From NCBI GenBank assembly GCA_963790025.1, contig CAWBMP010000005.1, forward strand, positions 160,001 to 224,000: a stretch of 64,000 bases of DNA. The letters run 5' to 3'. Shown piece by piece: positions 34,181-61,620 of the stretch. The notes under the pieces are model-generated. The model was not told where the DNA came from, made no database searches, and saw only the letters and a list, made by a program, of their open reading frames with translations. The translations under genes and the position numbers were made by a program. How positions within the stretch are numbered: position 1 is the stretch's first letter; every line of letters starts with the position of its first letter. Source of the stretch: Nitrospirota bacterium (GTDB lineage: Bacteria; Nitrospirota; Thermodesulfovibrionia; Thermodesulfovibrionales; Dissulfurispiraceae).

Positions 34181-34302
34181 ACTCAGTTACATTAGAAGGG
34201 CATTGCTTATGCCGGAGTGTAAGCATGCCCTATCAAAGTGAGGAGTCTCCGAGTAATAAAAGACTATTTGTTTTCAGAAAGAAGGAGACCTCAAACTTGA
34301 AG

Positions 34303-37300: not shown

Positions 37301-40300
37301 CTGCGCCCATACTGCTTTTCTGGTTTGCATCACCCTTTATTGCGTGGCGTGTCAGCCTGCCGCTTGCCCGCAGTGAAGCAAGACTGAGACCCGACCAGAT
37401 CGTTTTTCTACAAAAGCTTTCCCGAAAGACCTGGGCCTTCTTCGAGACCTTGGTAGGCCCCGAAGAGCATTGGCTGCCGCCGGATAACTATCAGGAGCAC
37501 CCTGCCGCTGTTGTTGCTCACCGCACGTCTCCGACTAACATGGGACTTGCGCTTCTGGCGAATTTATCCGCCCATGACTTTGGCTACATTTCTATGCTGC
37601 AACTCGTCGAACGCACGACGAATGCACTCTCCACGATGGAAGCGCTGGAGCGCTACCGGGGCCACTTTTACAACTGGTACGACACGCGGTCTCTGAAGCC
37701 GCTGCCGCCCAAATACGTTTCGACCGTGGACAGCGGGAACCTTGCAGCCCATCTGCTTACATTGCGACAGGGCCTGCTCACGCTTCCCGACCAGGCGCTA
37801 CTGGGCCCGCGAGTGTTTATCGGGCTCCGCGACACACTATGGGTACTCCTAGACAGCGCGGCCGGAACACGGTATGAAGGAGACATCACTGCATCGTTCG
37901 CTCAACTGCAGAACGAGCTTGAATCCGCGTGCAATGTCCAACCAACTGCGCTCCCGGCTGTGAGGCTCCATCTTGATCAACTCGCAAAGCTCGCAGAAGA
38001 GGCGCTTTCCGGGATCGATAGTTTGGGTGTCGGTCCGGAGAATCTGCCGGAGAATCTGATAGTCTGGTGGGCACGCGCGCTTGCCGGTCAATGCCGGGCC
38101 GCACTCGATGAACTGACGCTGCTCGCCGCTTCCACGGTCCGCGACATTGATGAGATGCCGACCTTGCGAGAACTGGCAAACACTGGAAGCGATGTCGCCG
38201 CTGAGAGGATTACGGCTATTGAAAAGCTCGTTTTGCAATCCGGTGAACTCAGCCGCATGCAGTATGACTTCCTGTTCGACAGGGCGAGTCATTTGCTATC
38301 CATCGGGTACAACGTCGACGGCCGCAGGCTGGACACGAGTTACTATGACCTGCTGGCTTCGGAAGCGAGACTCTGCAGTTTCGTAGCAATCGCCCAGGGA
38401 CAATTGCCGCAGGAGAGCTGGTTTGCCCTTGGGCGCTTGCTTACTAACGTCGGTGGAGAGCCGATCCTCGTTTCCTGGAGCGGTTCTATGTTCGAATACC
38501 TCATGCCGCTCCTGGTAATGCCGACGTATGAACGTACGCTGCTCGACGAGACCTGCAGGGCTTCTGTGGCCAGGCAGATCGAATATGGGAGAAAACGCGG
38601 TGTACCCTGGGGCATTTCGGAATCCGGCTACAACACGATCGATGCTCAGCTCAACTACCAGTACCGCGCCTTCGGCGTACCCGGCCTGGGACTTAAACGC
38701 GGGCTCGCGGACGATCTGGTAATTGCGCCCTATGCCTCGGCTCTTGCCCTGATGGTAATGCCCGAGGAGGCGTGCGTCAATCTGCAGCGGCTCGCTGAGG
38801 AAGGATATGAGGGAAAATTCGGCTTCTATGAAGCGATCGATTACACTCCCTCGCGTTTGCCGCTCAGGCAATCGAGTGCCGTGGTCCGGTCATTTATGGC
38901 CCATCATGTGGGCATGAGCTTTCTTTCCCTGACCTATCTGCTTTTGGACCGTCCCATGCAGAAACGATTCGAGTCGGATCCCTTGTTTCAGGCAACCACG
39001 CTTTTGCTCCAGGAGCGTGTGCCAAGTGCCACGGGATTCTATTCGCAGACCGCCGACCTCTCCGAATCACATGCGGTTCCAACTGGCGCCAAGACCTCCG
39101 TGCGCTCTTTCAGCAGCCCGGACACGCCCTTTCCCCAGGTGCATTTGCTGTCGAACGGCAGATACCACGTGATGATCACGAACGCCGGCGGCGGGTACAG
39201 CCGATGGAAGGACATCGCGGTCACACGCTGGCGTGAAGACAGTACCCGCGACAACTGGGGCGCGTTTTGTTATATCCGTGAGGTAGCAAGCGGGGAGTTC
39301 TGGTCAGCCGCATTTCAGCCTACTCTTAAACACTCTAAGAATTATGAGGCGATTTTTTCGGAAGGCCGCGCCGAGTTTCGCCGCCGGGACCACGACTTTG
39401 ACACGCACACCGAGATCGCTGTTTCTCCCGAGGATGATATTGAGCTGCGTCGGATTAAGATCACCAACCGCGGCCGGACCCGCAGAGAGATCGAAATCAC
39501 AAGTTACGCGGAGGTTGTCCTTGCTTCGCCTGCTGCAGACATTCTTCATCCTGCGTTCAGCAATCTTTTCGTTCGGACGGAGATCATCGATCACAGGAAA
39601 GCGATCCTCTGCACCCGCCGCCCCCGGTCACTCGACGAGCACTCCCCATGGATGTTTAATCTGATGGCTGTCCACGGCGCGGAAACCGGCGAAGTTTCTT
39701 ATGAGACCGACCGCTTGCGGTTTATCGGCCGCGGAAACACCGTTGCCGACCCACAAGCGATGACCGGGTCTGCTGCACTCTCGGGCGCTGAGGGTTCAAT
39801 GCTCGATCCGATCGTTGCTATACGGTATCGCGTGACCCTTGATCCGGAAGAATCGGCAACAATAAACGTTGTCACCGGCATCGGTGAAAGCCGCGACATC
39901 TGTATGGGTCTTGTAGAGAAATACCAGGACCGGTATCTCTCAGACCGCGTTTTCGAACTCGCATGGACGCACAGCCAGGTGCTCCTGCGGCAGATCAACG
40001 CCACGGAAGCCGATGCGCAACTCTATGGACGTCTCGCCTGCGCAGTAATCTACGCCAATTCTTCGCTGCGCGCCGACCCGGGCGTCATCATCAGAAACCG
40101 CCGCGGGCAATCGGGTCTTTGGGGTTACTCCATTTCCGGTGACCTCCCTATAGTGCTGTTGCAGATCGCAGATCCGGCCAACATAGGCCTGGTAGGCCAG
40201 CTCGTACAGGCCCACGCATACTGGCGCCTCAAGGGACTGGTGGTGGACCTTGTGATCTGGAACGAAGATCACGCCGGTTACCGGCAGCTTTTGCAAGATC

Positions 40301-42990
40301 AGATCATGGGACTAATTGCCGCAGGCGTCGAAGCGACCGTGACAGAACGACCGGGCGGCATCTTTGTGAGACCTGCAGACCAGATATCGGGTGAGGACCG
40401 TATCCTGTTCCAAACGGTCAGTCGCGCTGTCATTACCGACAGCCTTGGCCCGCTTGATGACCAGATCGACCGTCGCAGCATTGCGCCGTTGATAGTGCCG
40501 CGACTTGTGCCGACCCGGAGCCGCCGCGCGGAAATATCGACTGGATCGGCAATGCCTCGCACCGATCTTCTGTTCTTTAACGGCCATGGAGGATTCACCC
40601 CCGATGGCCGCGAGTATATAATAACTACGGCGCACGGACAGGTGACACCGGCGCCGTGGGTAAATGTGATTGCCAACCCATACTTCGGGACAGTGATTTC
40701 CGAAAGCGGAGGTGCTTACACCTGGAGCGAGAATGCCCATGAGTTCCGTCTCACCCCTTGGCAAAACGACCCGGTAAGCGATTCCGGCGGAGAAGCTTTT
40801 TACCTTCGAGATGAAGAGAGCGGTCTTTTCTGGTCCCCTTCGCCGCTGCCGTGCCGGGGGGCGGCGCATTACGTCACCCGCCACGGATTCGGCTATAGTG
40901 TCTTCGAACATACTGAGGACGGGATCAGGTCAGAGATGTGGGTCTACGTGGCAATGGATGCACCGGTCAAGTTAACGGTATTGAAGGTGAGAAACGAATC
41001 GGGCCGGTCCCACCGACTCTCAGCCACCGGGTACGTGGAATGGGTGCTTGGAGATTTGCGGACGAATACAGCGATGCATGTGAGCACCGAAATTGACCCC
41101 AAGACCGGAGCTCTTTTCGGGCGAAACCCATACAACACGGAGTTCGCCGACCGGACCGCGTTCTTCGACGTGGATGACGGGACCCGGACCGTGAGCGGCG
41201 ACCGGACAGACTTCCTTGGACGTAACGGCACACTTCGGAGCCCGGAGGCGATGACCCGCACGCGGCTTTCAGGCAGGGTGGGGGCTGCCTTGGACCCCTG
41301 TGCCGCTATACAGGTTCCCTTCGATTTGGCCGATGGGCAAGAGCGTGAGATTGTTTTTAGGCTTGGCGTAGGGAGAGACTCATCTGACACCGGCCAACTG
41401 GTACGCCGCTTCCGGGGGTCTGCAGTGGCGCGCGATGTTCTCGAAACAGTATGGCAGTACTGGAACCACACCCTCGGCGCAGTGCAGGTGGAAACACCGG
41501 ACCAGTCCGTCAATGTGCTGGCCAATGGCTGGCTTTTATACCAAACTCTGGCATGTCGTCTTTGGGCCCGGAACGGATACTACCAGCCCGGCGGAGCCTT
41601 CGGCTTCCGCGACCAGTTGCAGGACGTGATGGCGCTTATACACTCTGAACCGCGGCTTGTGCGCGAACACCTGCTCCTCTGCGCGGCCCATCAGTTCACA
41701 GAGGGAGATGTCCAGCATTGGTGGCATCCCCCATCAGGGCGCGGCGTGCGTACACATTGTTCGGACGACTTTCTCTGGTTGCCGCTGGCTGCGTGCCGCT
41801 ACGTTCTGAATACCGGAGACACGGGCGTGTTGGATGAAACTGTCCGCTTCATCACGGGTCGCCCGGTAAACATGGACGAGGACTCGTATTACGATCTTCC
41901 CCACTCGTCCGAAGAAACAGCAAGTTTGTACGATCACTGTGTGCGGGCCATTCTAAGAGGCCTCACCCGTGGCGAACACGGTTTGCCGCTCATCGGCTCG
42001 GGTGATTGGAACGACGGAATGAACATGGTGGGCGAACACGGTAAGGGTGAAAGCGTCTGGCTGGGCTTCTTCCTCCATAAAGTGCTTGTAGAATTCTGTG
42101 AGGTTGCGCGTCTGCACGGCGATCTGTCCTTCGTCAAACGTTGTCTGGAGGAAGCCGCTCAACTGCGCAGGAATATCGAAGAAAATGGCTGGGATGGCGA
42201 GTGGTATCTGCGCGCTTTCTTTGACGACGGTTCTTCACTGGGTTCGGCAAGCAATCCCGAATGTCGGCTTGATTCCATAGCGCAAAGTTGGTCTGTTCTC
42301 TCAGGCGCCGGGGATGCCGGACGCTCAACAATGGCAATGGAAGCTGTGGACAGGCTTCTCGTTCGAAGGGAACATGGCCTGGTCCAACTCCTGGACCCGC
42401 CGTTCGACAAATCGGACCTGAATCCCGGCTATATAAAGGGATACGTCCCTGGTGTAAGGGAGAATGGAGGGCAATACACGCACGCGGCGGTTTGGGCGGC
42501 GATGGCATTCGCTGCGTTAGGCGATTGCAGTCGCGCGTGGGAACTGCTGGCAATGATCAACCCTGTAAACCATGCGAGATCTCAGGGGGAAATCACAAAG
42601 TACAAAGTAGAACCGTATGTTGTCGCTGCCGATGTATATGCGGTCTCTCCGCATACCGGACGCGGTGGATGGACATGGTACACGGGATCGGCAGGCTGGA
42701 TGTACACGCTTATCCTTGAATCACTTCTCGGATTGAGGCTTGAAGGAGACAAACTGTGTTTCGCGCCGTGTCTGCCCGGGGATTGGGAGTCGTTCAAGGT
42801 ACATTACCGGTACAGGGAAACTGTCTACCACATCACCGTACGCAAATCTTGCGACGGCAGCGTGGCGAGTGTCACCGTTGATGGCGTTGAGCAACGTGCT
42901 AATGCTATTCCACTTCTTGACGACCATGCGGAGCATTCGGTCGAGGTGAGAATACCCGCCCTGGGGCAAAGAGGAGAGAATGAAACTTAA
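34303..42990 (+). CDS. ndvB: Cyclic beta-1,2-glucan synthase (Cgs/NdvB/ChvB type) with a C-terminal GH94 phosphorylase; start uncertain (34225/34297/34303)
   Basis: 'WLLDNFYLIEEQ', 'ERKRGKL', 'SHDLIEG', 'RRHRWIRGDWQ', 'SWSGSMFEYLMP'; GH94 'GFRDQLQD', 'GDWNDGMN', 'ENGGQYTH'. Confidence 0.95.
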   Translation: MPNKTILGSLPYLRASLRETDLAQKCAVCEPPLRSELFSSDQMEQHGKTLAGLHKLSPGYPPDQLLTRLADNEGILTGTRRLLMEAVTTDRRITPAGDWLLDNFYLIEEQIRMARRHLPKGYSRELPRLKGGLSAGLPRVYDIALETISHSDGRIDPGSLSRFVAAYQTVTVLKLGELWAIPIMLRLALIENLRRVGARIAADRLDRNQADYWADRISEIAGKDPKSLILVIADMARSEPLLKSAFVAEFARRLQGQGPALAMPLTWIEQRLSESSLTIDHLVQSENQQQAADQVSMSNSIGSLRFLGTMDWREFVETMSEVEQTLREDSGGTYAAMDFSTRDRYRHVVEKIAKSGRLSEGEVAAAAVRLAQGNMADKNGTRGRDDRDTHVGYYLIDKGLPQLEELANVRSSVSGFLRKVSSRFPLPLYLGAIMLMTVIVTGGLLTKAHSDGLHNSLIVITGILSLLCTSQLAVAVVNWLATLLTIPQQLPRMDFSKGIPPESRTLTIVPTMLTSAEGIEDLIEALEVRFLANRDENLHFGLLTDFQDAAEETLPEDVPLLLLLRQRIEALNEKYENAKGDTFFLFHRPRRWNARERVWMGYERKRGKLSALNALLRPTENGGTHDLSDNRFSLVVGNTAVLLNVKYVITIDTDTQLPRDSARQLVGAMAHPLNRAHYDEGEQRVVAGYGILQPRVAVSLPGTNRSRYARMYGSDPGIDPYTRAVSDVYQDIFLEGSFIGKGIYDVDAFERALGGRLPENRILSHDLIEGCYARSGLLSDVMVYEEYPCRYSADVSRRHRWIRGDWQLVRWLLPFIPGHGPGPDGQRRKNPLSPLSRWKLFDNLRRSLVPSALTLLLLLGWTVLSSPWFWTLSVIGIIFIPFLISSVLDLLKKPDGVLFGQHLTAVGHSTVRRFVQVVFTLACLPYEAFFSLDAIERTAWRMLITHKRLLEWNPSGGPDRNYSRMGGLAGVCRTMWSAPFLAVSAIVYLALSNPAALTAAAPILLFWFASPFIAWRVSLPLARSEARLRPDQIVFLQKLSRKTWAFFETLVGPEEHWLPPDNYQEHPAAVVAHRTSPTNMGLALLANLSAHDFGYISMLQLVERTTNALSTMEALERYRGHFYNWYDTRSLKPLPPKYVSTVDSGNLAAHLLTLRQGLLTLPDQALLGPRVFIGLRDTLWVLLDSAAGTRYEGDITASFAQLQNELESACNVQPTALPAVRLHLDQLAKLAEEALSGIDSLGVGPENLPENLIVWWARALAGQCRAALDELTLLAASTVRDIDEMPTLRELANTGSDVAAERITAIEKLVLQSGELSRMQYDFLFDRASHLLSIGYNVDGRRLDTSYYDLLASEARLCSFVAIAQGQLPQESWFALGRLLTNVGGEPILVSWSGSMFEYLMPLLVMPTYERTLLDETCRASVARQIEYGRKRGVPWGISESGYNTIDAQLNYQYRAFGVPGLGLKRGLADDLVIAPYASALALMVMPEEACVNLQRLAEEGYEGKFGFYEAIDYTPSRLPLRQSSAVVRSFMAHHVGMSFLSLTYLLLDRPMQKRFESDPLFQATTLLLQERVPSATGFYSQTADLSESHAVPTGAKTSVRSFSSPDTPFPQVHLLSNGRYHVMITNAGGGYSRWKDIAVTRWREDSTRDNWGAFCYIREVASGEFWSAAFQPTLKHSKNYEAIFSEGRAEFRRRDHDFDTHTEIAVSPEDDIELRRIKITNRGRTRREIEITSYAEVVLASPAADILHPAFSNLFVRTEIIDHRKAILCTRRPRSLDEHSPWMFNLMAVHGAETGEVSYETDRLRFIGRGNTVADPQAMTGSAALSGAEGSMLDPIVAIRYRVTLDPEESATINVVTGIGESRDICMGLVEKYQDRYLSDRVFELAWTHSQVLLRQINATEADAQLYGRLACAVIYANSSLRADPGVIIRNRRGQSGLWGYSISGDLPIVLLQIADPANIGLVGQLVQAHAYWRLKGLVVDLVIWNEDHAGYRQLLQDQIMGLIAAGVEATVTERPGGIFVRPADQISGEDRILFQTVSRAVITDSLGPLDDQIDRRSIAPLIVPRLVPTRSRRAEISTGSAMPRTDLLFFNGHGGFTPDGREYIITTAHGQVTPAPWVNVIANPYFGTVISESGGAYTWSENAHEFRLTPWQNDPVSDSGGEAFYLRDEESGLFWSPSPLPCRGAAHYVTRHGFGYSVFEHTEDGIRSEMWVYVAMDAPVKLTVLKVRNESGRSHRLSATGYVEWVLGDLRTNTAMHVSTEIDPKTGALFGRNPYNTEFADRTAFFDVDDGTRTVSGDRTDFLGRNGTLRSPEAMTRTRLSGRVGAALDPCAAIQVPFDLADGQEREIVFRLGVGRDSSDTGQLVRRFRGSAVARDVLETVWQYWNHTLGAVQVETPDQSVNVLANGWLLYQTLACRLWARNGYYQPGGAFGFRDQLQDVMALIHSEPRLVREHLLLCAAHQFTEGDVQHWWHPPSGRGVRTHCSDDFLWLPLAACRYVLNTGDTGVLDETVRFITGRPVNMDEDSYYDLPHSSEETASLYDHCVRAILRGLTRGEHGLPLIGSGDWNDGMNMVGEHGKGESVWLGFFLHKVLVEFCEVARLHGDLSFVKRCLEEAAQLRRNIEENGWDGEWYLRAFFDDGSSLGSASNPECRLDSIAQSWSVLSGAGDAGRSTMAMEAVDRLLVRREHGLVQLLDPPFDKSDLNPGYIKGYVPGVRENGGQYTHAAVWAAMAFAALGDCSRAWELLAMINPVNHARSQGEITKYKVEPYVVAADVYAVSPHTGRGGWTWYTGSAGWMYTLILESLLGLRLEGDKLCFAPCLPGDWESFKVHYRYRETVYHITVRKSCDGSVASVTVDGVEQRANAIPLLDDHAEHSVEVRIPALGQRGENET

Positions 42991-44461: not shown

Positions 44462-44506
44462 TGGTGCCCTCTACAAGATTCGAACTTGCGGCCCCAGGTT
44501 TAGGAA
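44462..44506 (-). repeat. Displaced 3' half of tRNA-Arg(CCT): distal att site
   Basis: tggtgccctctacaagattcgaacttgcggccccaggtttaggaa; 43/45 identical to 60458-60502. Confidence 0.92.
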
Positions 44507-44984
44507 GTCAAAATAGCACATTTTTGCAGATGGGCGTCTGGTAAGGGTTTGGGCATAACTTATTAAATTGCAAGGCGGTTTTGGGTTGACGTATTTTCCA
44601 TGTATTACCATATTTTCTGTCCTTTCAGTGGCATTCTGCTACAATTTTGCTACAGTTAGCTATTATAGCGCGTTTTAGCCTTGAGAGCGTGATTTAAACA
44701 ATTTTTATAACTGGGCCTTCTACCTACGAAATTGGCCTTTTAGCTTAACTTTCAAAGAGTTTGAACGTTATATCCTTTACGGTATTTTCTATCCTTTCAT
44801 GTGCTTTAGGATATTTTTGGTTACATTTTGGCTACAGTCAGACTCTTATTCGAGGCCGGATATCTCACAGAACCCAACGCTCCGGCGCGGCTCGATAATT
44901 ATCAAGGTTTCAAACGATAACTGTTGCTGCGATACGGCTTTCAACTCGCATACTGTGAAATCAGGGCAGTCCTAGCCATAAGTC

Positions 44985-46672: not shown

Positions 46673-47260
46673 TTACTTATTCATATTCAATAGGTCCTTA
46701 ATTCTTCCTTCCAGAAAACTCGGTTCTGGAAAAAGAGCCGTTGAATATAGCCAGTCCTTGCGTTTCCCAACTTGCAGAAGACCCGCCGTTGGCTTGTATT
46801 CTCTAGCATGGACGACGTCAATAGATTCTATAGGCTGCACCCATTGAACGATTCTACCGGATGTCCTTGTTCTCTCGTCGTCCAAAACACAAAAGAGACT
46901 TCGTGTGCTCGCAACCAACCAAGTGCGCTGTTTTGCAGTAGAGAAAATCAAAACCTGTCCCACAAAGGTCTCACCATTAGAAAGAAGTCCCAGCGAGCTA
47001 ATGACGTTCCTGATACCTTCTTCAGTCAAGAAGCCGCCGGGACCTATGATTTCAAGTTCCTTCTTGACTTCATTTGGAGCATCAATGGGTTCAGAAGCAG
47101 GCCGCTGAAACTCGGCCTCGGTGTCACCAATCTTAAGTTTAGCCAATCTCTCTATCAGACTGGAGATCTGGTTTCTAAACAGGTAAAGTCCAATGAGAAC
47201 CACCGATGGCCACAAAAGAGCCTTTATGAGATCAAGCCAGAGTTCGAGAGGTGATTTCAT
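46673..47260 (-). CDS. Hypothetical protein: N-terminal 'WP' membrane anchor + possible PH-like domain
   Basis: 'LLWPSVVLIGLYLFRNQISSLIERLAKLKIG..EAEF'; beta-rich 'QRTWLVASTRSLFCVLDD'. Confidence 0.75.
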   Translation of the reverse strand: MKSPLELWLDLIKALLWPSVVLIGLYLFRNQISSLIERLAKLKIGDTEAEFQRPASEPIDAPNEVKKELEIIGPGGFLTEEGIRNVISSLGLLSNGETFVGQVLIFSTAKQRTWLVASTRSLFCVLDDERTRTSGRIVQWVQPIESIDVVHAREYKPTAGLLQVGKRKDWLYSTALFPEPSFLEGRIKDLLNMNK

Positions 47261-47380: not shown

Positions 47381-50300
47381 TCATTTCTTCCTCGTGCGTC
47401 TCCGCCGCACCGGAGAACCTCCCTGCATAATAGAGCGATTATCTATCTCATTTAAAGCATCGCTAACTCCATATGCTTCAATATCCAATAATGTCTCAAA
47501 CAATTCCAATCCCTGTAATCTGTGTGTGCCGCCCAGTCTCTGCAATGTCAGCGCTATGTTAATAATTTCAGGAGCAGCAATCGCAAAAGAAGTACTCAAA
47601 TTGTTGAGTTCCGATCTTTTTTGCTCAATCAATATTTTGGAAATATCGTATATACGGTCGGGTTCTAAAGGTAATAAATCTCGAAGACGCTCAACGATAA
47701 AGGTATCAGGAGCATACTGAAAAGATCTTGGATGTTGTATTAAACAATCTAGAAACTTTCTTGTAAGGTCGTCAGGAACTATATGGTCTATGATACGAAA
47801 AATATCCATTATTGCTCTATCAATTTTATCGTCATTATCTTTAATTAGTTCGCATAACATACCTGTTGCGATCTTCTTGTAAGTCAATTCAGACCACAAA
47901 CGGGACACAGTATAAGCAAGTCCTAAGCGCATATGTTGAACTTTAACTTGGTCTTGATCTGGATAATCCCTCTGCATTATTCTATGAATTTCGTAGCCAA
48001 CATCCTCATTTTCAGGGTGCCAAGCATAGTAGAGCATCGATATTTCAGCATAAGCCTGAGGGCCTTTAACCCACTCGCCGTCGCGCAACGAAAATAACCA
48101 TTTCATAAAAACATCAGTGGGAATCCAAGCTTGAATCTGTGTAAGCAAAATAGCCCCTTGATTACTGCTAATCAATCGAGGATAGCTACTAAACAGATTC
48201 TCTAAGAAAGTGATTGCCCTAGAATGCTCACAATTGGAAAGATACTGCAAGAAGTGAAGCATAGCATGCCATACTTCCACGGCATCGTTGCGAGAGAGGT
48301 GTGACTCTAAAACTTCTATCCACCGATCTGCAGCTATTGGTTTTCGGAAGAGTAATGCTTTAGTGAGTGCCTCCAGTATAGTAAAGCTACCTTGAGGCAC
48401 AACAAAAAAGCTCTGATGTCCCCACAAGATACTCCGATCTACTTTCTCTTCTTTCTCTTCTTTCTCTTCTTTCGTGTGATTAGTTGAACTGTACTTATGT
48501 GGCTCTACTGCTTGAGTTAACCATTCATTCAATATGTTGCAAATATAATCAGGCAAGCCAATACTGTCTTTAACTCTTACCGATAAGGCATGGGCGGCGG
48601 CGGCGCGGAATTCAAGCGTCTTAAATCCCCGCTTATTTAATTCGACAACTAAAGTAAATAGTTCTTTGTCAGGTAGTTCTGAAATGGACAATCCCTCAAG
48701 TGCCATCCCCGTGGGTCTCTCTTGTAAACCCGGTTTGAAGTGACCTAATATAGGGATAGCTCTCTGAGGGTGCGATTTAGCAAAGTCCGAAAAAGCTCTC
48801 GATGCTTGTATGCTCCCGCCTAGTGAAAGGTCCTTCGGATGATCCCAATTCGTGCTATCTACAAACTTTTCGAATAGCTTTACAATGTCTTCATCTTTAG
48901 CCTTTGCCATTTGCTCCGCAGACATCGGGCTTTCAATCGTATGAAATCCAGTAAAAACTATTTCCTTTTCTGACAATTTGGGGAACGCTCTTTCTTCCTC
49001 CTCAACAAGGCGCTTTGTTTTGTCGCTCATCAGGTCTCTTGGAATGGCGTGTAAGACTTTCAGTCGACGCTGTCGATTATACTTAAATGTATCAGCCCGC
49101 CTCTGACCACTGTCACCCTCTTCATTAGGGAAACAGTCCCATTTGAGGATTGCATCTTCTAGCTTTGAGAGGTCCTGCTGAGAAAGAAGGGGGGCCAGTT
49201 TTGAAATCAAACGTTTACTATCTTTGTGCTGATCATCATAGCTACCTAAAGCAAATCTTCTTCCGTCAGACATGATAAACTTGAAAACAACTTGAGGAAA
49301 GTTTTCAATTAATTTTTCTAATCCCTTTGACAAGAGTCTTTGGACAAGAGATATATTAGATTTCTCCCATTTGTTCAAGAAGCTTATGAAAGCAACCGCA
49401 TCGGTTTGAGCAAATGTTTCAATAGCAATTTTGAAGGAAGTCATAAACGGATATCTATCAGGTTCTCCATCCTTCAAGTCCTCAGATAAGATTGAAATGT
49501 GATGGTAAGTGCCCTTGACCGACGAATCACCGAAATCTCTTTCAAGCATCTCTACAAGCCATGGCCAAACAACATCAAGATAGACTTTTGGGGCTGCTTC
49601 TGCTATAGCCGGAAGATTGTACCACTCGTCAAAGCTATCTAAAGCCTTCTGATGTTTTATCCCGGGCAAACTTTGCTCAGAACTAGCTATGCTTTGTGCC
49701 AATCCATATCGTACAACAATCGGCGCTAGTTCAGGAGACGCAGCTGAAATTATACTTGCCAGGTCGCAAACTGCCCAGGAAGCAAATTTGGTTCTATGTA
49801 AAATAGTGCAAATTACTTCTATTGCTTTAGCATCCCATTGGGATAACTCCTGAAACGTCGCCCATGTTAACGGGTCCTTTTCCTTATCACGTAGCCAATA
49901 GCGCTCAATTAGCTTAAATACGCCATCGCTGTCAAATCGCCATGCCTTTTGAAGGATGAATATGGCATGCTTTGCACGTTCTGTTTCTTCAGACATTATT
50001 TGAGGAAGATAAGTGTTCTTTACTCGCTCGAACCATCCGGGGCTCCCTGACATAAAATAAAGAACCTTGCGTCTAAACTCAGGCTTTTCCAAAAGTGGGA
50101 GTAGTTTTCCCGCCTCATAATCGTCAGGTTTCTGTAGTTGGCTCAAGAATTCTATTAGTAATAGCCTAATGTGTAATCGGAGACTTTCGTCTGTCCAAAG
50201 ACGATCAAGCTCCTTTTTGTATGTCACTTCGTGTGCAACACGCAAATAATGTAGGCCACTCCATAGTTGCGGTCTCACAAATAATGCGCTCTGTCTCGCC

Positions 50301-52402
50301 ACAACATAATTTGATAAACTCTCAATCTCTTTCGCAAATGCCCTTGCTCTGGCAAAGTCGAAGATGGTTTGATGACTAAAAGCTATTCTTATTCCAGAGT
50401 TATCGGATATCAGTATTCCTTCAGAGATAAGGTTCTCAAGGCTCTTCATATGGGCATCAAAAGCCGATATGGGCAACCAGAGTGTTTCTTCTTCCCCCAT
50501 TTTTGAAGCTATCCGTTCAACCAACTCTGCTCGGCCTTCAATTCCATCAGGATTTAAAAGTTTGATCTTCCATAATTCTTCAAGTAGAGCATGATACGTG
50601 AGAAGATCTTTAGTTACTGCAAAAGAGGGGGCAATCTTCAAAAATATTTTGATATGGAGCGGTGTCTTGAGTAGCTCCTTAAAATTAGGATTCCAAGAGG
50701 ATGAATCAATTCCCATGTCTTTCAATACTTGTGCCACGTCATCCCATTGAGGGAGTTCAAGTGTCACAGTATCGGCCTTAATGCTTCTCAGGCGGGCATC
50801 ATGGTTATATTCAAATGTCCTGCAAGAGGACAAAACATGAACGTTTGGTTTATCCGAAAGTCGCTTTATGAAATCAAGCATTATATTTAGGCGTTCAGTT
50901 CTTAGATCCACCAAGTCACCGAGAGCATCTAGCTGGTCCAATAAAACAACCACCTTCTCATGTCTGGATAATCTCTCTACGCACGCTACAAGATTATCGG
51001 GCAAGCCTAAATCTTTTGATAGCTGCTCCAATGAATTCACAGATACATTGAGAAGATCCGCTTTTATGGCAAGGACAGTAATTCCTTTGTCTTCGAGAGT
51101 CTTGCCTAATTTGGCCAACAATGACGACTTTCCACTTCCTGGAGCACCCAATAATATAATTGTATTGCTGTCCTGAGTTTCAAATGCTGTCATTAGCCGC
51201 CTTATTTCAGGCCTATCTATCCAACGATCAACTCCTACAGTAACATGCCAAGATAACAGGTCAATGGATGTTCTCTTAAGTGCAGCCCTTATCTCGTCTA
51301 AAGAGATGTATTCTGATTCCAAATGAACAAATGTGATTGGAAACTCTTTCAATAGCGTGAGCTTATTGGAATCAAACAAAGACTTGATACGCTCGAATCC
51401 ATTCAGTGAACTTTGCGCGAAGATGACAAGACTACCTTTCTCGATGCGATAAATACTTAAAGATGAATCCCCCGACAACTCCCTAAGGTTCGCTTCCATC
51501 TGTAGCAGTAAAGTCTTATCAGGCATTTCTGAGGTCGTTTCGACACCTAAAACAAATCTAAGGGTATCTCTCTCGTCACGCGTCTCCACTCCTGCATGTA
51601 AACTTAAAGATGCTTCGCTGACAACAAGCTTGGCTAACATCTCAAAGGCAAAGGCACTAGCATGAAGTGCGGCGGTCTCATGATATCCATCACCTTTTTC
51701 GTCAACCAGATCCGAGATGCCACGTATAATTATCGTTTCTTTACCACTGCGGTGTGCGGCATCATGCACACCGAACCCTTCCATATCAACAGCAAGGGCA
51801 TCACCATAATTCTGCTTTATGAAAACATATACTTCAGATTTTGAGTCCGCTATTACCTTCTCTCCCGAAGCTATAGCTCCAACAAGAGCTCTTGGATTTC
51901 GTTCAGGTAGTTTAGAGATTCTCTTTAACCAATCCTCTTTTCTTGCCGCTGCACGAGCTCTTTGTTCCAGTCTATAAGCGGCTCTATAGGCACTGGGACG
52001 TGGTCTTAACTCCTTCTCAGCCTTGCCGAACTCATAGCCATATACCTTTGTTGCAGCGATCACATCTGCGATTTCAACGTCCTTTATCCCTCCTGCAATG
52101 CCAACAAAGAATACGAATCTGGGGTTAAAATAATCGATTGCGCGTTCTGTTTCTAAAGCTGCGGTTTCATTACCAGGCCCTGTTTCAATAACGGCAACAT
52201 TCCAAAATTGACCATCAGAGCGAAAAATACCACACTCATACACAGCGCCTTTGGGATGGACCCTTTCCAGTAAATCAGTGAGATGACTAGTGACAGCTGT
52301 AAATTCGATGGGAAGAGCAGTAACGATTACAACCCATGGAAGATCGTTAATATTATGAGGATTTACGTTGGTTTGCTGCATTGACAGAGGATCCATATTC
52401 AT
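47381..52402 (-). CDS. Avs-like antiviral STAND NTPase with an N-terminal PNP/MTA-SAH nucleosidase effector and a TRADD-N-like insert
   Basis: PNP motifs VTALPIEF, FVGIAGG, IASGEKVI, AVDMEG, IRGISD; Walker A GAPGSGKS; Walker B VVLLDQLD; 'FSHQTIFDF'; long helical C-terminus. Confidence 0.85.
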   Translation of the reverse strand: MNMDPLSMQQTNVNPHNINDLPWVVIVTALPIEFTAVTSHLTDLLERVHPKGAVYECGIFRSDGQFWNVAVIETGPGNETAALETERAIDYFNPRFVFFVGIAGGIKDVEIADVIAATKVYGYEFGKAEKELRPRPSAYRAAYRLEQRARAAARKEDWLKRISKLPERNPRALVGAIASGEKVIADSKSEVYVFIKQNYGDALAVDMEGFGVHDAAHRSGKETIIIRGISDLVDEKGDGYHETAALHASAFAFEMLAKLVVSEASLSLHAGVETRDERDTLRFVLGVETTSEMPDKTLLLQMEANLRELSGDSSLSIYRIEKGSLVIFAQSSLNGFERIKSLFDSNKLTLLKEFPITFVHLESEYISLDEIRAALKRTSIDLLSWHVTVGVDRWIDRPEIRRLMTAFETQDSNTIILLGAPGSGKSSLLAKLGKTLEDKGITVLAIKADLLNVSVNSLEQLSKDLGLPDNLVACVERLSRHEKVVVLLDQLDALGDLVDLRTERLNIMLDFIKRLSDKPNVHVLSSCRTFEYNHDARLRSIKADTVTLELPQWDDVAQVLKDMGIDSSSWNPNFKELLKTPLHIKIFLKIAPSFAVTKDLLTYHALLEELWKIKLLNPDGIEGRAELVERIASKMGEEETLWLPISAFDAHMKSLENLISEGILISDNSGIRIAFSHQTIFDFARARAFAKEIESLSNYVVARQSALFVRPQLWSGLHYLRVAHEVTYKKELDRLWTDESLRLHIRLLLIEFLSQLQKPDDYEAGKLLPLLEKPEFRRKVLYFMSGSPGWFERVKNTYLPQIMSEETERAKHAIFILQKAWRFDSDGVFKLIERYWLRDKEKDPLTWATFQELSQWDAKAIEVICTILHRTKFASWAVCDLASIISAASPELAPIVVRYGLAQSIASSEQSLPGIKHQKALDSFDEWYNLPAIAEAAPKVYLDVVWPWLVEMLERDFGDSSVKGTYHHISILSEDLKDGEPDRYPFMTSFKIAIETFAQTDAVAFISFLNKWEKSNISLVQRLLSKGLEKLIENFPQVVFKFIMSDGRRFALGSYDDQHKDSKRLISKLAPLLSQQDLSKLEDAILKWDCFPNEEGDSGQRRADTFKYNRQRRLKVLHAIPRDLMSDKTKRLVEEEERAFPKLSEKEIVFTGFHTIESPMSAEQMAKAKDEDIVKLFEKFVDSTNWDHPKDLSLGGSIQASRAFSDFAKSHPQRAIPILGHFKPGLQERPTGMALEGLSISELPDKELFTLVVELNKRGFKTLEFRAAAAHALSVRVKDSIGLPDYICNILNEWLTQAVEPHKYSSTNHTKEEKEEKEEKVDRSILWGHQSFFVVPQGSFTILEALTKALLFRKPIAADRWIEVLESHLSRNDAVEVWHAMLHFLQYLSNCEHSRAITFLENLFSSYPRLISSNQGAILLTQIQAWIPTDVFMKWLFSLRDGEWVKGPQAYAEISMLYYAWHPENEDVGYEIHRIMQRDYPDQDQVKVQHMRLGLAYTVSRLWSELTYKKIATGMLCELIKDNDDKIDRAIMDIFRIIDHIVPDDLTRKFLDCLIQHPRSFQYAPDTFIVERLRDLLPLEPDRIYDISKILIEQKRSELNNLSTSFAIAAPEIINIALTLQRLGGTHRLQGLELFETLLDIEAYGVSDALNEIDNRSIMQGGSPVRRRRTRKK

Positions 52403-55235: not shown

Positions 55236-55686
55236 GAAAGCAGGAGTGCTGTCAAGAAAAGAGTAGCTAAAAAGGGACAGGCTACTTTATTAGGGTTGGC
55301 TGATGGCAATATATTAATTGATGAATTTGCAACTGCTGATTATGAGAGTCAGGTCATAGTCTTAAAAAGTGCGACAAGTGGTATGGAAATATCGAAGCTT
55401 GACTAAAAATTCTTTGGGAAGTATTAAGATTATATGAAAAAAAGTCCACTATGCTTGACTTTGCAGCTCCAACGGATAATATGGGATATATACCATAATT
55501 ATGAACCTTCAGGAATAGTATTATAGAATTTTCCAGATGGGCCTTCTGGCATAAATATAATCGGCAAATAAACCGGCAAAATAGTTTCGCTTAATTTCCT
55601 CTATCTTGATAATTTTATCAATTTTATATATAGTTACCATATAAAATAAGCGGCAAATAAATCGGCAAATGATAGGTCAGGTAACT

Positions 55687-56898
55687 ATGCAAACTCAGAA
55701 AATGACACCTTTATATCCCGAAAAAGCGGAGGAGCTTACTGATCTTGCTCTGGCTGTAATCCAAAAATCAGCAGCCCTTGGTAGCCGGCAACATCCAGTT
55801 ACTCTACATTCACTGCATGAATTCCTTCGGGTCATTAACAGCTATTATTCTAATTTAATAGAGGGTCATAACATGCATCCTTATGATATTGTGCGTGCGA
55901 TGCAAAAACAGTACGATACAGAACCGGCAAAACGTGATCTCCAGATGGAGAGCGTTGCTCATATTACCGTTCAAAGGGATATGGAAGGAAGATTGCAGCA
56001 AGAGCCTGAACTCAATATTGCTGGCCGAGAATTCCTCTGTTATGTGCACAGGGAATTCTATCGACAACTGCCGGATACGTTCAGAATCGTGAAAAATCCA
56101 GAGACGAGGCGTAAGAGCCGTGTCATTCCTGGTGAGTTGCGTAAGGAGACAGTTAAAGTAGGGCGCCATGTGCCGCCAGGAAGCGATACCCTGGATGCAT
56201 ATCTTGATCTGTTTGGTAGGTCTTACGCACCTGACCGTCATCATGGTGCGGCAAAGCTGGTTGCAGCTGCCGCCGCACATCATCGTCTCATGTGGATTCA
56301 CCCTTTCCTTGACGGAAACGGACGCGTGGCCCGGTTATTCACTGAGGCATATTTTCGACGCATTCCGGTTCTCGGCTACAGCCTCTGGTCAGTAAGCCGA
56401 GGGCTTGCGCGCAGAAATGTTGATTATAAGGCGGCCCTTAGCTGGGCGGACGCGGCACGGCGAAATGACCTTGACGGCAGGGGAACCCTATCGAATGAAG
56501 GACTGTTACGGTTTTGTCGGTTTTTTCTTGAAGTCTGCCTTGACCAGGTAGAATACATGGATAAACTTCTGAAGCTTGAAGAACTCGCGCAGAGAATCAG
56601 GTCCTATATTGACCTTCGGAACAGGGGGGTAATCCATAGCCCATCAGGGGAAAAAAAGTTGCTCCGGATCGAGTCGCTCAGAATGCTCCAGGAAGTCCTG
56701 ATACAAGGTGTTTTAACGAGGGGCGATGTTATTCAGGCCTCAGGCCTCAAGGAACGCACGGGACGAAATATACTGGGGCTGCTTCTTGAAGAGGGCTTGC
56801 TGGTTTCGGATTCTCCCAAGGGAGAGGTCAGGCTGGGATTTCCCATCCATGCAGCTGGATGGTTCTTCCCGGATCTGTATCCGACTTTAACAAATTAG
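55687..56898 (+). CDS. Fic-domain protein (class II, N-terminal inhibitory motif, C-terminal wHTH)
   Basis: HPFLDGNGRVAR Fic motif; 'SNLIEG' (S/T)xxxE(G/N) motif. Confidence 0.93.
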   Translation: MQTQKMTPLYPEKAEELTDLALAVIQKSAALGSRQHPVTLHSLHEFLRVINSYYSNLIEGHNMHPYDIVRAMQKQYDTEPAKRDLQMESVAHITVQRDMEGRLQQEPELNIAGREFLCYVHREFYRQLPDTFRIVKNPETRRKSRVIPGELRKETVKVGRHVPPGSDTLDAYLDLFGRSYAPDRHHGAAKLVAAAAAHHRLMWIHPFLDGNGRVARLFTEAYFRRIPVLGYSLWSVSRGLARRNVDYKAALSWADAARRNDLDGRGTLSNEGLLRFCRFFLEVCLDQVEYMDKLLKLEELAQRIRSYIDLRNRGVIHSPSGEKKLLRIESLRMLQEVLIQGVLTRGDVIQASGLKERTGRNILGLLLEEGLLVSDSPKGEVRLGFPIHAAGWFFPDLYPTLTN

Positions 56899-57176: not shown

Positions 57177-57224
57177 TGGTGCCCCCTGCAAGATTCGAAC
57201 TTGCGGCCCCAGGTTTAAGAAACC
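57177..57224 (-). repeat. Displaced 3' half of tRNA-Arg(CCT): internal att junction
   Basis: 47/48 identical to 60458-60505; IHF consensus sites on both sides (57150-57162, 57285-57297). Confidence 0.93.
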
Positions 57225-57481
57225 ATTATGGCGCTCAAATCAACTCTTTGAAATATTCGTTTTTATTGCCAGAATGTTTAAAATAATCAAGGAGTTATAT
57301 TTTCAGATGAGTTCCTTTGAATTCCTATCAGTTCTTGTCAGTTCACATGAATTCATGAAATAATATTACAGTTATATGACAGTTCTTGGGAGTTTGTCTC
57401 TTGCTTTCCGCCCCTCCTATTGCGAATACAACATCAAAACGGTAAACTAAAACTACGGATATTGAAGTTGGAGGTGCTGGG

Positions 57482-57661
57482 ATGGAAACTTTAAAACAGG
57501 AAGCTATTAAGGCTCTTACGAAATTACCTGATACGGCAAATATTGATGACATAATGTACGAGCTTTATGTTATCGACAAGGTTAAAAAGGGCAGGGAGGC
57601 TGTAGAGCGTGGCGAATCCGTTTCCATCGAAGAGCTGAGAAGAGAAATGCAGACGTGGTAA
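57482..57661 (+). CDS. Antitoxin of a RelE/ParE module (59 aa; not in the ORF track)
   Basis: SD ggaggt; METLKQEAIKALTKLPDTANIDDIMYELYVIDKVKKGREAVERGESVSIEELKREMQTW; overlaps the toxin start. Confidence 0.85.
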   Translation: METLKQEAIKALTKLPDTANIDDIMYELYVIDKVKKGREAVERGESVSIEELRREMQTW

Positions 57662-57960
57662 AGTGGTCAAAGCCTGCTGGGTTTGACTTGAAACAGATTC
57701 ACGACTACATTGCAAGAGATTCAAAATTCTACGCTCAAAAAGTCTCTCTGGAGATCATCGAAAAATCTGAAAAGTTAAATCTATTCCCTGAACTGGGCAG
57801 AATTGTCCCTGAGATAGGAGACCCGAGCATTCGGGAATTGCTCATTTATTCATATCGGCTCGTTTATGAGGTGTTTCCAGATAAGGTTGAAGTCGTCGCC
57901 CTGATCCACAGTAAGCGCAATTTTATAAAAGATTTATTGAATGAACAGAGGAATGAGTAA
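57655..57960 (+). CDS. RelE/ParE-family toxin
   Basis: 'VKWSKPAGFDLKQIHDYIARDS', 'FPELGRIVPE', 'RELLIYSYRLVY', 'IHSKR'. Confidence 0.9.
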   Translation: MVKWSKPAGFDLKQIHDYIARDSKFYAQKVSLEIIEKSEKLNLFPELGRIVPEIGDPSIRELLIYSYRLVYEVFPDKVEVVALIHSKRNFIKDLLNEQRNE

Positions 57961-58239: not shown

Positions 58240-59094
58240 TTATTTTATCAAAAACCCTTCTTTCAATTTTGTTACGTGCCGAAGAATCAAATCAAACTTG
58301 TCACGAAATCCACGAACCTTAACCATATCTATAACTAATCTGTAGCGGGATTCGTCCCCAGTCTCAGCGGCTAAAATTTCCCTAATTGTTCCCGCTGTTT
58401 TTGGGTCGCTTATTTTCGCCATATCCTTCCCGAGTAGCTTTATCCCGGCCAACTGGTTGTCGAAGCCCTCATTCTCCAGTAGCGAGATTTCCTCTCCATA
58501 GAGTCTGGTTTCATTGTCCGCATCTCCGTAGTTATGCATTATAAATAACAAATCCTCAGCATCTTTCGGACGCTCAGGATATCGATCTTTCCAAGAGATA
58601 ATCTTCATAAGTGCCAATCCCCGTAGCGTTGGGATTTTAACGACTAACTCAGGTTCCGAGTTTAATCTGACATATACAGAATATCTATAGGCCTCATCAA
58701 ACCCAAGCATGTTCATGAATATCTCATGCTCTGGAGGCCAGCTAATCTTCTTATCTTTATCAGCAATAGGGCCGAACGGGACAATATCAACGGGGATGCC
58801 ATTGAAGAGAAATCTTTGCTTTTCCTGTGTTACGGAAAACTGCCCTGTTGCAAGCAGCGCTTTTGATAATGCTTCGAACTGATCCCAGTTTGCGATCTCA
58901 ACGCCGAGGTCAATATCACGGGTCGCACGAATAGTTCTTATGCCATAGCAGTAATCGAGAATAAAATCCCTTGCTGCAGCTCCGACCAAAAAAAAAGGAA
59001 TACCCAGGGAGTCGGCAGCCCACTTTACAAGAGAAATGACATCCAGATATGCAGATTCAATCTTCCCTGATAAGTCGAATGATATATTGTTCAT
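58240..59094 (-). CDS. AbiEii/AbiGii-type nucleotidyltransferase toxin (type IV TA)
   Basis: 'FFLVGAAARD', 'RATRDIDL', 'VDIVPFG', 'K...W.DR....KDAEDL'. Confidence 0.9.
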   Translation of the reverse strand: MNNISFDLSGKIESAYLDVISLVKWAADSLGIPFFLVGAAARDFILDYCYGIRTIRATRDIDLGVEIANWDQFEALSKALLATGQFSVTQEKQRFLFNGIPVDIVPFGPIADKDKKISWPPEHEIFMNMLGFDEAYRYSVYVRLNSEPELVVKIPTLRGLALMKIISWKDRYPERPKDAEDLLFIMHNYGDADNETRLYGEEISLLENEGFDNQLAGIKLLGKDMAKISDPKTAGTIREILAAETGDESRYRLVIDMVKVRGFRDKFDLILRHVTKLKEGFLIK

Positions 59095-60091
59095 AGATAA
59101 TCTTTGCTGTTTCAATGTTTCTCTGATTGCCTGTTGCTAGAAGATCGGCATAAACAAGCACAGGATTTACTGTGCCTTCGGGTCGGTCTTCTTTAAAGGC
59201 CCCCCAGAACCTTTGAAGGATTTCCACGTCACCTTCGGCGTCTTTTCTAAGCCTGTTTTCAGCCAGGAATTCATTTAAGTAGCGAGGATCAGTATAAATA
59301 GTGATAATTTGGGGTTTAAGATATTTTGTGAACTTTGCCGCAGCAATTTCACCACCCCATTGGGCATTGTCAGGATTCAGATTTATTTTCTGCATTTGAT
59401 CTAATTGCTCCTGTATTGCCTTGAAACGGCCGAATAGAAGCTTCGGCCTCAATCTTTCCGGATATTCCGTTACCCAGCGCTGTAAGAGTTCATCCTTGCG
59501 GGTCAATTTTAAACCCCTTTTCCCCATATCGAGCAGGTAGCCCAATTCTTTTAATTCTCTCATTATCCAGCCAACTGTTCCGAGGGCTACAGTTGCTTTT
59601 GCGGCAATATCGCGGTATGGCTCTTTTTCGAGGGCTGGATTACACAGAAAGGCATAAAGTACCTGGAGTCCCGTAGGTTTGAAAGCGCGCCCGATTTGGG
59701 GAGGTCTCACGATATCCGGAATCCTATTCCCTTTCACAAAAATATACAAGGGAGGTTGGTTCACGTATGCGTTTCCGGCAGCGTCGATGAATTGTATCCC
59801 TTCCTGTTTTAAGCGGTCCGCCATCCGCTCATTGATATATCCTGCAACTAAGAGGTAGGGATGGTGAACCTCTTTTGTACGCACATGGGCAAGCATTCCC
59901 ACGTGTGCCTCAGTAATATTAATCTTCACGTCAGCAGCAAACAGTAACTTTTTCCCTGGAATATCTATTTGCAGCAGGAAATCAGTGTTCTCTCTTAGCT
60001 GAGGTTGCTGTCCGGCTATTTTGGTTCCCACTTTGAGCGCAACATTCTCTTTGAATGCATGGAGTGCATTCTCAAGAATTGCTTTTTCCAT
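59057..60091 (-). CDS. AbiEi-type antitoxin / transcriptional regulator (type IV TA)
   Basis: 'FIDAAGNAY', HTH 'YRDIAAKATVALGTV', 'WGGEIAA', 'PVLVYADLL...RN.E.A'; overlaps the toxin. Confidence 0.88.
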   Translation of the reverse strand: MEKAILENALHAFKENVALKVGTKIAGQQPQLRENTDFLLQIDIPGKKLLFAADVKINITEAHVGMLAHVRTKEVHHPYLLVAGYINERMADRLKQEGIQFIDAAGNAYVNQPPLYIFVKGNRIPDIVRPPQIGRAFKPTGLQVLYAFLCNPALEKEPYRDIAAKATVALGTVGWIMRELKELGYLLDMGKRGLKLTRKDELLQRWVTEYPERLRPKLLFGRFKAIQEQLDQMQKINLNPDNAQWGGEIAAAKFTKYLKPQIITIYTDPRYLNEFLAENRLRKDAEGDVEILQRFWGAFKEDRPEGTVNPVLVYADLLATGNQRNIETAKIIYEQYIIRLIRED

Positions 60092-60114
60092 GTGGACGTT
60101 TTTATGCATAATGT

Positions 60115-60235
60115 TGTTCACTTTCTAATATAGTTCATTTATAGTGAACATAGCAAAAAAGTGAACGCAATGTCAAGCTTGGTGTTCATTATCACGATTA
60201 GTTCAATAATAGTGAACATTTACAAAATATGAACA
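60115..60235 (-). promoter_or_regulatory. AbiE promoter with two nested-palindrome operators
   Basis: GTTCA at 60116/60133 with TGAAC at 60145/60162; same geometry at 60184/60201/60213/60230; TTGACA (minus strand) at 60171-60176. Confidence 0.8.
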
Positions 60236-60457: not shown

Positions 60458-60534
60458 TGGTGCCCCCTGCAAGATTCGAACTTGCGGCCCCAGGTTTAGG
60501 AAACCTGTGCTCTATCCTACTGAGCTAAGGGGGC
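60458..60534 (-). tRNA. tRNA-Arg(CCT)
   Basis: GCCCCCTTAGCTCAGTAGGATAGAGCACAGGTTTCCTAAACCTGGGGCCGCAAGTTCGAATCTTGCAGGGGGCACCA folds as a full cloverleaf with CCA end. Confidence 0.97.
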
Positions 60535-60741
60535 TCCTTTAAAATCAATGAGTTACAAGGTTAGGCAACATATTTTAACATAAATTGTCACTAAATCGTC
60601 ACTAAATATTCATTAGAAGACCTGTGCTCTTTCCGCCTGAGCTAAGGGTTGAACCTTAAAAATCAACAACTTGCAACCTGCTGCATTTTATTTTGCCATA
60701 GACCGTCACTAATTCGTCACAAAAAAACCTGTGCTCTATCC
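60501..60741. repeat. Tandem ~110-120-bp units: tRNA 5' half + IHF site + GTCACTAA repeat pair
   Basis: 5'-half copies at 60620-60648 (26/29) and 60725-60741 (17/17); IHF sites 60543-55 and 60661-73; repeat pairs 60586-607 and 60704-725. Confidence 0.85.
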
Positions 60742-60857
60742 GAATGTAAATATGCCTGCAACAAAAAGCAATTGCCAAACTAATAGTGCCTTATGTAATA
60801 TCTTTACCGGTGCAGAACAGCATCTTTACATGCTAAAATAGCGCAGGAGGTTTTACT

Positions 60858-61130
60858 ATGGCGACTACGTTGAAGATGGACAAAGGTGACGCATTGATTG
60901 TGAAGGAGAGTCTTGAGCTTGACAGGAATATCATGAAACTTAGCCTTCTGGAATACAGTAAGAAACTGAAGGACTTTGAAAAAAAGCACAAGATGACCAC
61001 CAAAGCGTTCTTGCAGAAATTCAACTCCGGCACATTGGGAGACGATGGCGAATGGTTTGATTGGCTCTTCGCATCTAAAGCTTGTGAACATGTCAAAGAC
61101 AGGTTGCATAGAATAGCTGCAATAGTCTGA
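60858..61130 (+). CDS. Putative antitoxin
   Basis: SD aggagg; 'LKDFEKKHKMTT..F...F.SG.LGDD..WFDW' pattern; translationally coupled to the next gene. Confidence 0.75.
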   Translation: MATTLKMDKGDALIVKESLELDRNIMKLSLLEYSKKLKDFEKKHKMTTKAFLQKFNSGTLGDDGEWFDWLFASKACEHVKDRLHRIAAIV

Positions 61131-61510: not shown

Positions 61511-61546
61511 CGCAGCAGCCGGGTGATGTCAGGTTAAATAGACAAC

Positions 61547-61620
61547 TGTCACTAAATCGTCACTAAAACTCAGCTAATAAATGATAACTACTGATAACTT
61601 CTGATAAATACCGATAACTA
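61547..61620. repeat. att-arm-like module: GTCACTAA pair + four 10-bp tandem repeats
   Basis: tgtcactaaat-cgtcactaaaa; atgataacta ctgataactt ctgataaata ccgataacta. Confidence 0.8.

Follow-up and report, generated by a model that had tools for sequence, protein, structure and literature searches.

A PNP-TRADD-N-STAND protein, probably an NLR-like abortive-infection sensor, in a tRNA-Arg-bounded island of a Nitrospirota bacterium

The window analyzed here, a 64,000-nucleotide (nt) stretch of a Nitrospirota bacterium (assembly GCA_963790025.1, contig CAWBMP010000005.1, positions 160,001 to 224,000 of the forward strand), carries on its minus strand an open reading frame (ORF; 47381-52402) of 1673 codons, open from an ATG start, whose product is probably a single-polypeptide, NLR-like abortive-infection sensor of the family described by Kaur et al. 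(2021). From N- to C-terminus, this 1673-amino-acid (aa) protein is made up of a PNP/MTAN-type nucleosidase effector, a TRADD-N-like insert, a linker helix, a STAND NTPase and a long constant region that presumably acts as the sensor. The five-part protein is real, and its construction is incompatible with chance. The ORF and domain layout given in an earlier reading made from the letters of the window (the sequence-only reading: 1673 aa, PNP, insert, Walker A and B motifs, long C-terminus) are borne out, and the limits that it had set for the PNP domain (51630-52340) and for the insert (51317-51568) agree to within a few bases with those found here (51617-52333 and 51323-51562).

Candidate ATG codons for the gene stand at 52402, 52396 and 52381, the third of them encoding M8; no clear Shine-Dalgarno sequence was seen before any of the three. 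The database copy of the protein (P0002, 1666 aa) begins at M8, and the closest homologues among the matches listed also align from M8, so that nt 52381, and not 52402, may be the true start.

Results

The effector domain (aa 24-262; 51617-52333) is matched by Pfam PNP_UDP_1 over aa 24-243 (E 1.1e-24), by the PADLOC CBASS model “Effector PN-superfamily” (E 2.9e-21, 73.5 bits) and by the NCBIfam MTAN model (74 bits), and can be aligned at E ≤ 1e-3 to 38 PDB sequences, those of solved MTA/SAH nucleosidases. In the alignment with E. coli MtnN, its residues E33, M207-E208 and S230-D231 occupy the places of MtnN E12, M173-E174 and S196-D197; across 34 PNP domains of the family, E33, M207, E208, R227 and D231 are invariant. 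The Pfam match and these aligned, invariant catalytic residues uphold the earlier claim of an intact N-terminal PNP effector on an NLR-like STAND protein. Pairwise comparison gave 48.6% identity with a PNP protein of 643 aa encoded on an Acaryochloris plasmid, 35% (88 bits) with a PNP-SAVED protein on a Nostoc plasmid and 24% (46.6 bits) with E. coli MtnN, suggesting that the window PNP is nearer to immune PNPs than to the housekeeping enzyme. When aa 1-720 were used in a search of genome contigs, 15 loci were returned, all of them PNP-domain-only relatives (frames of 273-985 aa, mostly from cyanobacteria), and a hidden Markov model (HMM) of the insert found no TRADD-like domain in any of these 15. 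A separate observation concerns the Nostoc PNP-SAVED protein, which is encoded directly upstream of a CBASS oligonucleotide cyclase (plasmid NZ_CP026684.1, locus L018 2516-5142), indicating a cyanobacterial-plasmid CBASS with a PNP effector.

As to what such a domain might do, the PNP domains of Cap17 (CBASS) and DtcC (Detocs) are reported to split ATP and dATP, yielding adenine together with (deoxy)ribose-5'-triphosphate, and PNP domains are described at the N-termini of diverse Avs/NLR-like proteins (Rousset et al., 2023, preprint). With Cap17 and DtcC the window domain shares the PNP fold, an immune context and the conserved catalytic Asp (D231 here; D353, the mutated site, in DtcC). The two known domains are switched on by cyclic nucleotide or by phosphotransfer within multi-gene systems; unlike them, the window PNP is fused to its own STAND switch by way of the TRADD-N module, and its activity is a predicted one. 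Because of the Cap17/DtcC homology and the intact catalytic set, ATP is the predicted substrate, and depletion of ATP is most likely the output of the domain. The action of the PNP on some other nucleotide, with NAD+ degraded or a nucleotide-derived signal made in place of ATP/dATP depletion, seems unlikely: PNPase does appear among the NAD+-targeting domains of Kibby et al. (preprint), as a predicted generator of NAD+ or other nucleotide derivatives, and the MTAN and CBASS effector models score alike on the window domain (74 vs. 73.5 bits), but all of the immune PNPs for which Rousset et al. describe assays (Cap17, DtcC, fungal NLRN and sponge DDAN) release adenine from ATP/dATP, and in pairwise comparison the window PNP scores higher with a CBASS PNP effector than with MtnN.

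The insert that follows (aa 281-360, 80 aa; 51323-51562) is a single module placed between the variable effector, here PNP, and a constant linker-STAND backbone. The Pfam family TRADD-like_N (PF20694) matches it with 15.6 bits when the whole protein is scanned and with 21.6 bits (E 1.9e-4) when the stretch is isolated. Relatives of the insert carry the assignment further. In an alignment (A1) of window aa 280-384 with 25 homologous stretches, PF20694 matches 14 of the 26 family inserts (best 8e-10), and P0009 and P0043, both among the three relatives nearest to the window insert (32-39% identity), carry precomputed PF20694 annotation. The A1 profile, run against 1.84 billion cluster representatives, retrieved 785 at E ≤ 1e-3, including 81 at E ≤ 1e-10. 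From 150 listed of these 785, 120 proteins of 150-900 aa were scanned with PF20694 (18 long proteins and a few others being omitted), and the family was present in 90 of them (best 1e-23). The partner domains in these carriers are pentapeptide repeats, CHAT, ECF-sigma regions, TIR, PNP, EAD1 and STAND.

The AlphaFold2 model of the insert (pLDDT 89.9) has the order beta-alpha-beta-beta-alpha-beta, followed by a long linker helix, and shows an RRM-like fold of two alpha+beta layers whose sheet has four strands. The “uS” motif (a tiny residue followed by Ser) of the beta2-beta3 turn is present as G323-S324, between model strands E37-42 and E46-52; at this turn the G is invariant and the S at least 90% conserved in the 26 A1 sequences, and both are invariant in the 120 profile-retrieved proteins. 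The partner domains and the “uS” motif are those given for bacterial TRADD-N by Kaur et al. (2021). Because the profile retrieves PF20694 carriers, together with the published partners and the “uS” motif, the insert can be assigned by transitive profile homology to the bacterial TRADD-like_N family. A co-fold of the PNP (aa 1-262) with the TRADD-N region (aa 280-363) scored 0.00; it was run without controls and counts neither way.

How the module is distributed was followed in a protein-database search in which 318 of 8000 scored candidates were relatives at E ≤ 1e-3; the family rows discussed here are the window protein and the 119 relatives among the matches listed (120 rows of this 318-relative set). 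Over the first 720 residues, the best non-self matches are about 50% identical. The NTPase is common to all 120 rows and the N-terminus is variable: 77 rows have PNP, and the remaining 43 have TIR, SEFIR, Mrr_cat, SIR2_2, CHAT or other effectors. The insert HMM is positive in 46 rows, every one of them PNP-linked (46 of the 77 PNP rows; P0043 is truncated at its N-terminus and P0010 is a weak match), and in none of the 43 with other effectors (Fisher p 1e-12, from rows that are related and so not independent).

The five closest relatives listed (P0003-P0007; 1595-1597 aa) have an NTPase core 54-56% identical to that of the window protein. In a BLAST comparison of aa 260-400 with the 120 listed relatives, these five match only from aa 362 onward, and the multiple alignment shows a short linker in them in place of the module of about 85 aa that is present in the window protein, P0008 and P0009. 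The linker helix (aa 361-384; 51251-51322), recognized in the alignments and in the AlphaFold2 model, keeps its A-S-x-x-L-L pattern in relatives without the TRADD-N module as well. A maximum likelihood tree of the NTPase core (quick mode, 120 listed rows, SH-aLRT support) contains a 43-row clade (support 98) of proteins of 1715-1812 aa that holds 40 of the TRADD-N proteins. The window protein is outside this clade, sister to P0003-P0007 (support 98) and near the module-bearing P0008 and P0009. Compared with P0038 and P0085 of the main clade, it is 41-42% identical in the NTPase and 29-30% in the C-terminus. The tree requires at least six gains or losses of the TRADD-N module, and loss in the lineage of P0003-P0007 is the simplest reading of its absence there.

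Several results weigh against the favoured reading, an abortive-infection sensor with a TRADD-N-like module. The window insert is under the PF20694 gathering score (21.6 vs. 23.7 bits). Its profile picked up no TRADD chain at E ≤ 10 in the sequences of the PDB, where the only matches were TM0844 (E 0.0078, weak and chance-level) and 4ak9_A (E 1). A Foldseek search of the PDB with the insert model brought up 0 matches at E ≤ 1e-3; the 50 matches listed do not include human TRADD (1F3V) and are ferredoxin-like folds of a generic kind (subtilisin propeptide, PII-like SbtB, CcmK). The module is missing from the five closest relatives listed (P0003-P0007) and hence dispensable for the backbone, and the literature search found no experiment on the window protein or on any PNP-TRADD-N-STAND protein. 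With no TRADD in the PDB profile or Foldseek results, it is Kaur et al. (2021) who provide the basis for linking the insert to vertebrate TRADD-N. What remains of the earlier description of the insert as TRADD-N-like is its membership of the bacterial PF20694 family, its fold and its G-S turn; a detectable similarity to vertebrate TRADD is not among what was found.

The STAND NTPase (NBD-HD-WHD, aa 385-720; 50243-51250) has intact Walker A (GAPGSGKS, aa 419-426; 51125-51148) and Walker B (VVVLLDQLD, aa 484-492; 50927-50953) motifs. At aa ~395-540 Pfam gives AAA_16 at 33.7 bits, above its cut-off, with nSTAND3, nSTAND1, nSTAND5 and NACHT below theirs. An AlphaFold2 model of aa 385-760, built from a 35-row alignment, has a pLDDT of 88.4. 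In a Foldseek search of the PDB with this model, the first-ranked match was Avs4 bound to portal (8dgf_A; E 6.7e-12, TMq 0.42), followed by NLRP2, NLRP14 and NLRP9 (NLRP9 7wbu with TMq 0.73), NLRC4, NOD2, NLRP1 and NLRP3, and ORC/Cdc6; EfAvs5 came at rank 38, and Avs3 was not among the 50 matches listed.

Is this, then, an Avs protein? The Avs-type plan is present: an N-terminal effector, a STAND NTPase with intact Walker motifs and a long C-terminal region. Family models point elsewhere. The NCBIfam Avs4 model, whose cut-off is 1500 bits, reaches 31 bits (E 3.8e-8, aa 408-668 only), and no other NCBIfam Avs model is among the best 25 of 41 families at E ≤ 1. The best PADLOC match for the NTPase is the candidate PDC-M54A (63 bits, aa 411-691 against profile positions 316-611 of 1621), which recurs at 45-67 bits in all of 10 further family members; among the same 10, NCBIfam Avs4 matches three (about 30 bits) and the PADLOC Avs4 model one (29.7 bits). 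A place nearest to Avs2, as the sequence-only reading had it, was rejected: the PADLOC Avs2 model gives 21.5 bits (E 9.9e-6), PDC-M54A does better, and the solved structure that matches best is Avs4. At the level of these models the STAND domain is outside Avs, an outcome that the earlier reading had itself counted against its proposal, with Avs4 still the best solved structural neighbour.

Membership of the NACHT clade was also rejected. The NACHT signature after Walker B is D[GAS]hDE (Kibby et al., preprint), and at the expected place the window protein has D489-Q-L-D492-A, which does not vary across 35 family sequences; the Pfam NACHT model, with its cut-off at 26.7 bits, reaches 18.9. By the models run, the protein thus falls outside Avs1-5 and NACHT, though it appears Avs/NLR-like in its working.

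The comparison with known systems can be made more specific. EcAvs4 (8DGF) resembles the window protein in its tripartite effector-STAND-sensor construction, in its length of about 1600 aa and in heading the Foldseek matches to the NTPase model, and some members of the window protein's family have Mrr_cat effectors; it differs in that the match covers the NTPase alone, with none over the sensor, so a phage portal trigger cannot be assumed for the window protein. PDC-M54A, the best PADLOC NTPase match and common to all the further family members tried, is likewise matched in the NTPase part only, and the literature search returned no mention of PDC-M54. Animal NLRs (NLRP9, NLRP3, NLRC4, NOD2) can be superposed with TMq 0.57-0.73 and follow the same tripartite logic, but their NACHT signature D[GAS]hDE is absent from the window protein.

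The remainder of the protein (aa 721-1673; 47384-50242) is a constant region, presumed to be the sensor. No Pfam family was found in it. It is 29-50% identical over about 950-1000 aa in 11 of 11 family members compared, whatever the effector, and a SEFIR protein on a Nostoc plasmid aligns with window aa 362-1656. The corresponding region is labelled “wHTH+TPRs” by Kaur et al. (2021). In the Protein Atlas, both this region and a 195-aa ORF downstream of the gene (see below) fall in unnamed clusters; HEAT annotation, present on 10% of one of the clusters, is a lead only. The helical C-terminus of about 1000 aa described in the sequence-only reading is right in length (about 950 aa), and its helical state is supported for aa 721-760, the part included in the NTPase model. 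The region also contains a KEEKEEKEEK run (aa 1311-1320; nt 48438-48473), encoded by a 9-nt tandem repeat, which may be a flexible or length-variable loop.

Genomic context

The gene lies in a tRNA-integrated island, as had been proposed, bounded by direct repeats (repeat family D1) of the 3' part of tRNA-Arg at 44462-44517 and 57177-57232. The integration target is tRNA-Arg(CCT) (60458-60534, minus strand); the repeats correspond to its 3' ~45 nt, the first 45 nt containing 1-2 mismatches. The copy at 57177-57232 is at once the right boundary of the NLR island and the left boundary of a second island, so that the three tRNA-Arg 3' copies define two adjoining islands, at 44.5-57.2 kb (12.7 kb) and 57.2-60.5 kb. 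Since none of the scanned ORFs was recognized as an integrase, the two tandem islands look like old, decayed integrations.

Within the first island are the NLR gene, the 195-aa ORF, three small lipoprotein-like ORFs and a gene for a SoFic-like Fic-domain protein (55669-56898, plus strand; PADLOC SoFic E 1.4e-27). The second holds a ParE toxin gene (57655-57960, plus strand) and an AbiEii/AbiEi pair whose ORFs overlap (58240-59115 and 59057-60121, minus strand), all recognized in the family scan. The NLR gene is therefore in a defence-island context, with a SoFic-like gene in the same island and AbiE and ParE in the adjoining one. A TumE-like toxin is encoded beyond the tRNA (61130-61510, plus strand; PADLOC PDC-M44B 5.9e-18).

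The GC content of the NLR island is 0.41-0.46. To its left, a 2921-aa gene resembling GH94 cyclic beta-1,2-glucan synthase (34225-42990, plus strand) has a GC content of 0.55-0.59, against 0.41-0.51 in the rest of the window. Just past the tRNA 5' end, at higher coordinates, repeat copies are found at 60583-60746 and 61544-61567: these are two partial copies of the tRNA-Arg 5' half (60613-60661 and 60725-60746) and four copies of a repeat of about 24 nt containing GTCACTAAA. The remaining window is ordinary chromosome, with genes for AspRS, PilM/secretin and RNase G besides the GH94 glucan synthase.

Discussion

As an abortive-infection sensor, the protein would be expected to work in several steps. 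The C-terminal constant region (~950 aa) would sense an infection cue; the STAND NTPase, judging from its structural likeness to Avs4 and animal NLRs, would bind ATP and oligomerise; and oligomerisation would gather the N-terminal PNP domains and activate them. The PNP would then cleave the N-glycosidic bond of ATP/dATP, as its homology and catalytic set suggest, starving phage and cell. At the junction of effector and backbone, TRADD-N would most likely serve in cis as a safety catch or bridge, keeping the PNP off until the NTPase switches, following the cis-switch (latch) model proposed for TRADD-N by Kaur et al. (2021). The module would not be structurally obligatory for this scheme: the closest listed relatives manage without it. 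A more particular proposal, that TRADD-N in this STAND family is a PNP-specific, removable safety catch, is put forward tentatively, as possible but not probable.

Another role for the module, as an adaptor that recruits a separate partner in trans, is quite improbable. The partner would be either an unlinked host or phage protein or the product of the 195-aa ORF (46673-47260), a putative membrane-anchored protein with an N-terminal hydrophobic helix; this ORF, on the strand of the NLR gene and 121 nt downstream of it, has a GGGGA ribosome-binding site. Precedents can be cited from Kaur et al. (2021): human TRADD-N binds the MATH domain of TRAF2 through its conserved Ser, and a SLATT or SIR2 gene follows some family members in their table. 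In most rows of that table, however, the gene stands alone, and MATH domains are lacking in bacteria according to the same source. The 195-aa ORF matches no Pfam or PADLOC family (its Atlas match, score 0.97, is to an unnamed bacterial cluster), and it has a promoter-like site of its own, in a scan of 46.4-53.2 kb whose promoter and terminator counts were not above those of shuffles (15 vs. 12.7 and 6 vs. 5.3). Nor is there a second TRADD-N-like domain within the window. It is hardly credible that the gene is non-immune and present on the island by chance, whether as a signalling regulator of the STAND type or as an enzyme of nucleoside salvage that has a regulatory tail: STAND NTPases do also serve as transcription regulators (Kaur et al., 2021), but the swapping of PNP, TIR, SIR2, Mrr, CHAT and SEFIR on one backbone is a hallmark of conflict systems, the surroundings are those of a defence island, and the Pfam scan found no DNA-binding output domain.

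The abortive-infection sensor favoured here would not be a new kind of protein. The sequence-only reading had implied that the PNP/TRADD-N/STAND layout was novel, but the architecture is given by Kaur et al. (2021), in whose Figure 3-source data 1/supplementary file 3 it is catalogued together with one split form and two other architectures that combine PNPase and TRADD-N, and PNP domains on Avs/NLR-like proteins are given by Rousset et al. (2023). The layout is thus already known from computational surveys, and the window protein is a further member and no new category. With the Kaur et al. family it shares the domain order, a similar length (by the listed description) and the TRADD-like_N family; it differs in its position outside the main 43-row PNP-TRADD-N clade, amid a mixed clade with variable effectors. 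What is new here is this placement, together with the natural TRADD-less sisters.

Both the bacterial TRADD-N domains and the PNP-NLR fusions are predicted to connect the cell-death signalling of prokaryotes with that of animals, and the literature searched holds no test of either in a bacterial NLR. Together with its TRADD-less sisters, whose core is 56% identical, the window protein makes up a natural with/without pair, and with its intact catalytic and switch motifs and these relatives the gene is a convenient start for work on the role of TRADD-N in a single-chain immune receptor. The same gene would also suit a second question: is the output of a PNP-NLR the depletion of ATP? If the safety-catch proposal is true, the family would offer the first direct experimental handle on the role of a bacterial TRADD-N domain, and TRADD-N might, for instance, determine the threshold at which an ATP-destroying effector is activated, or a phage anti-defence protein might target it.

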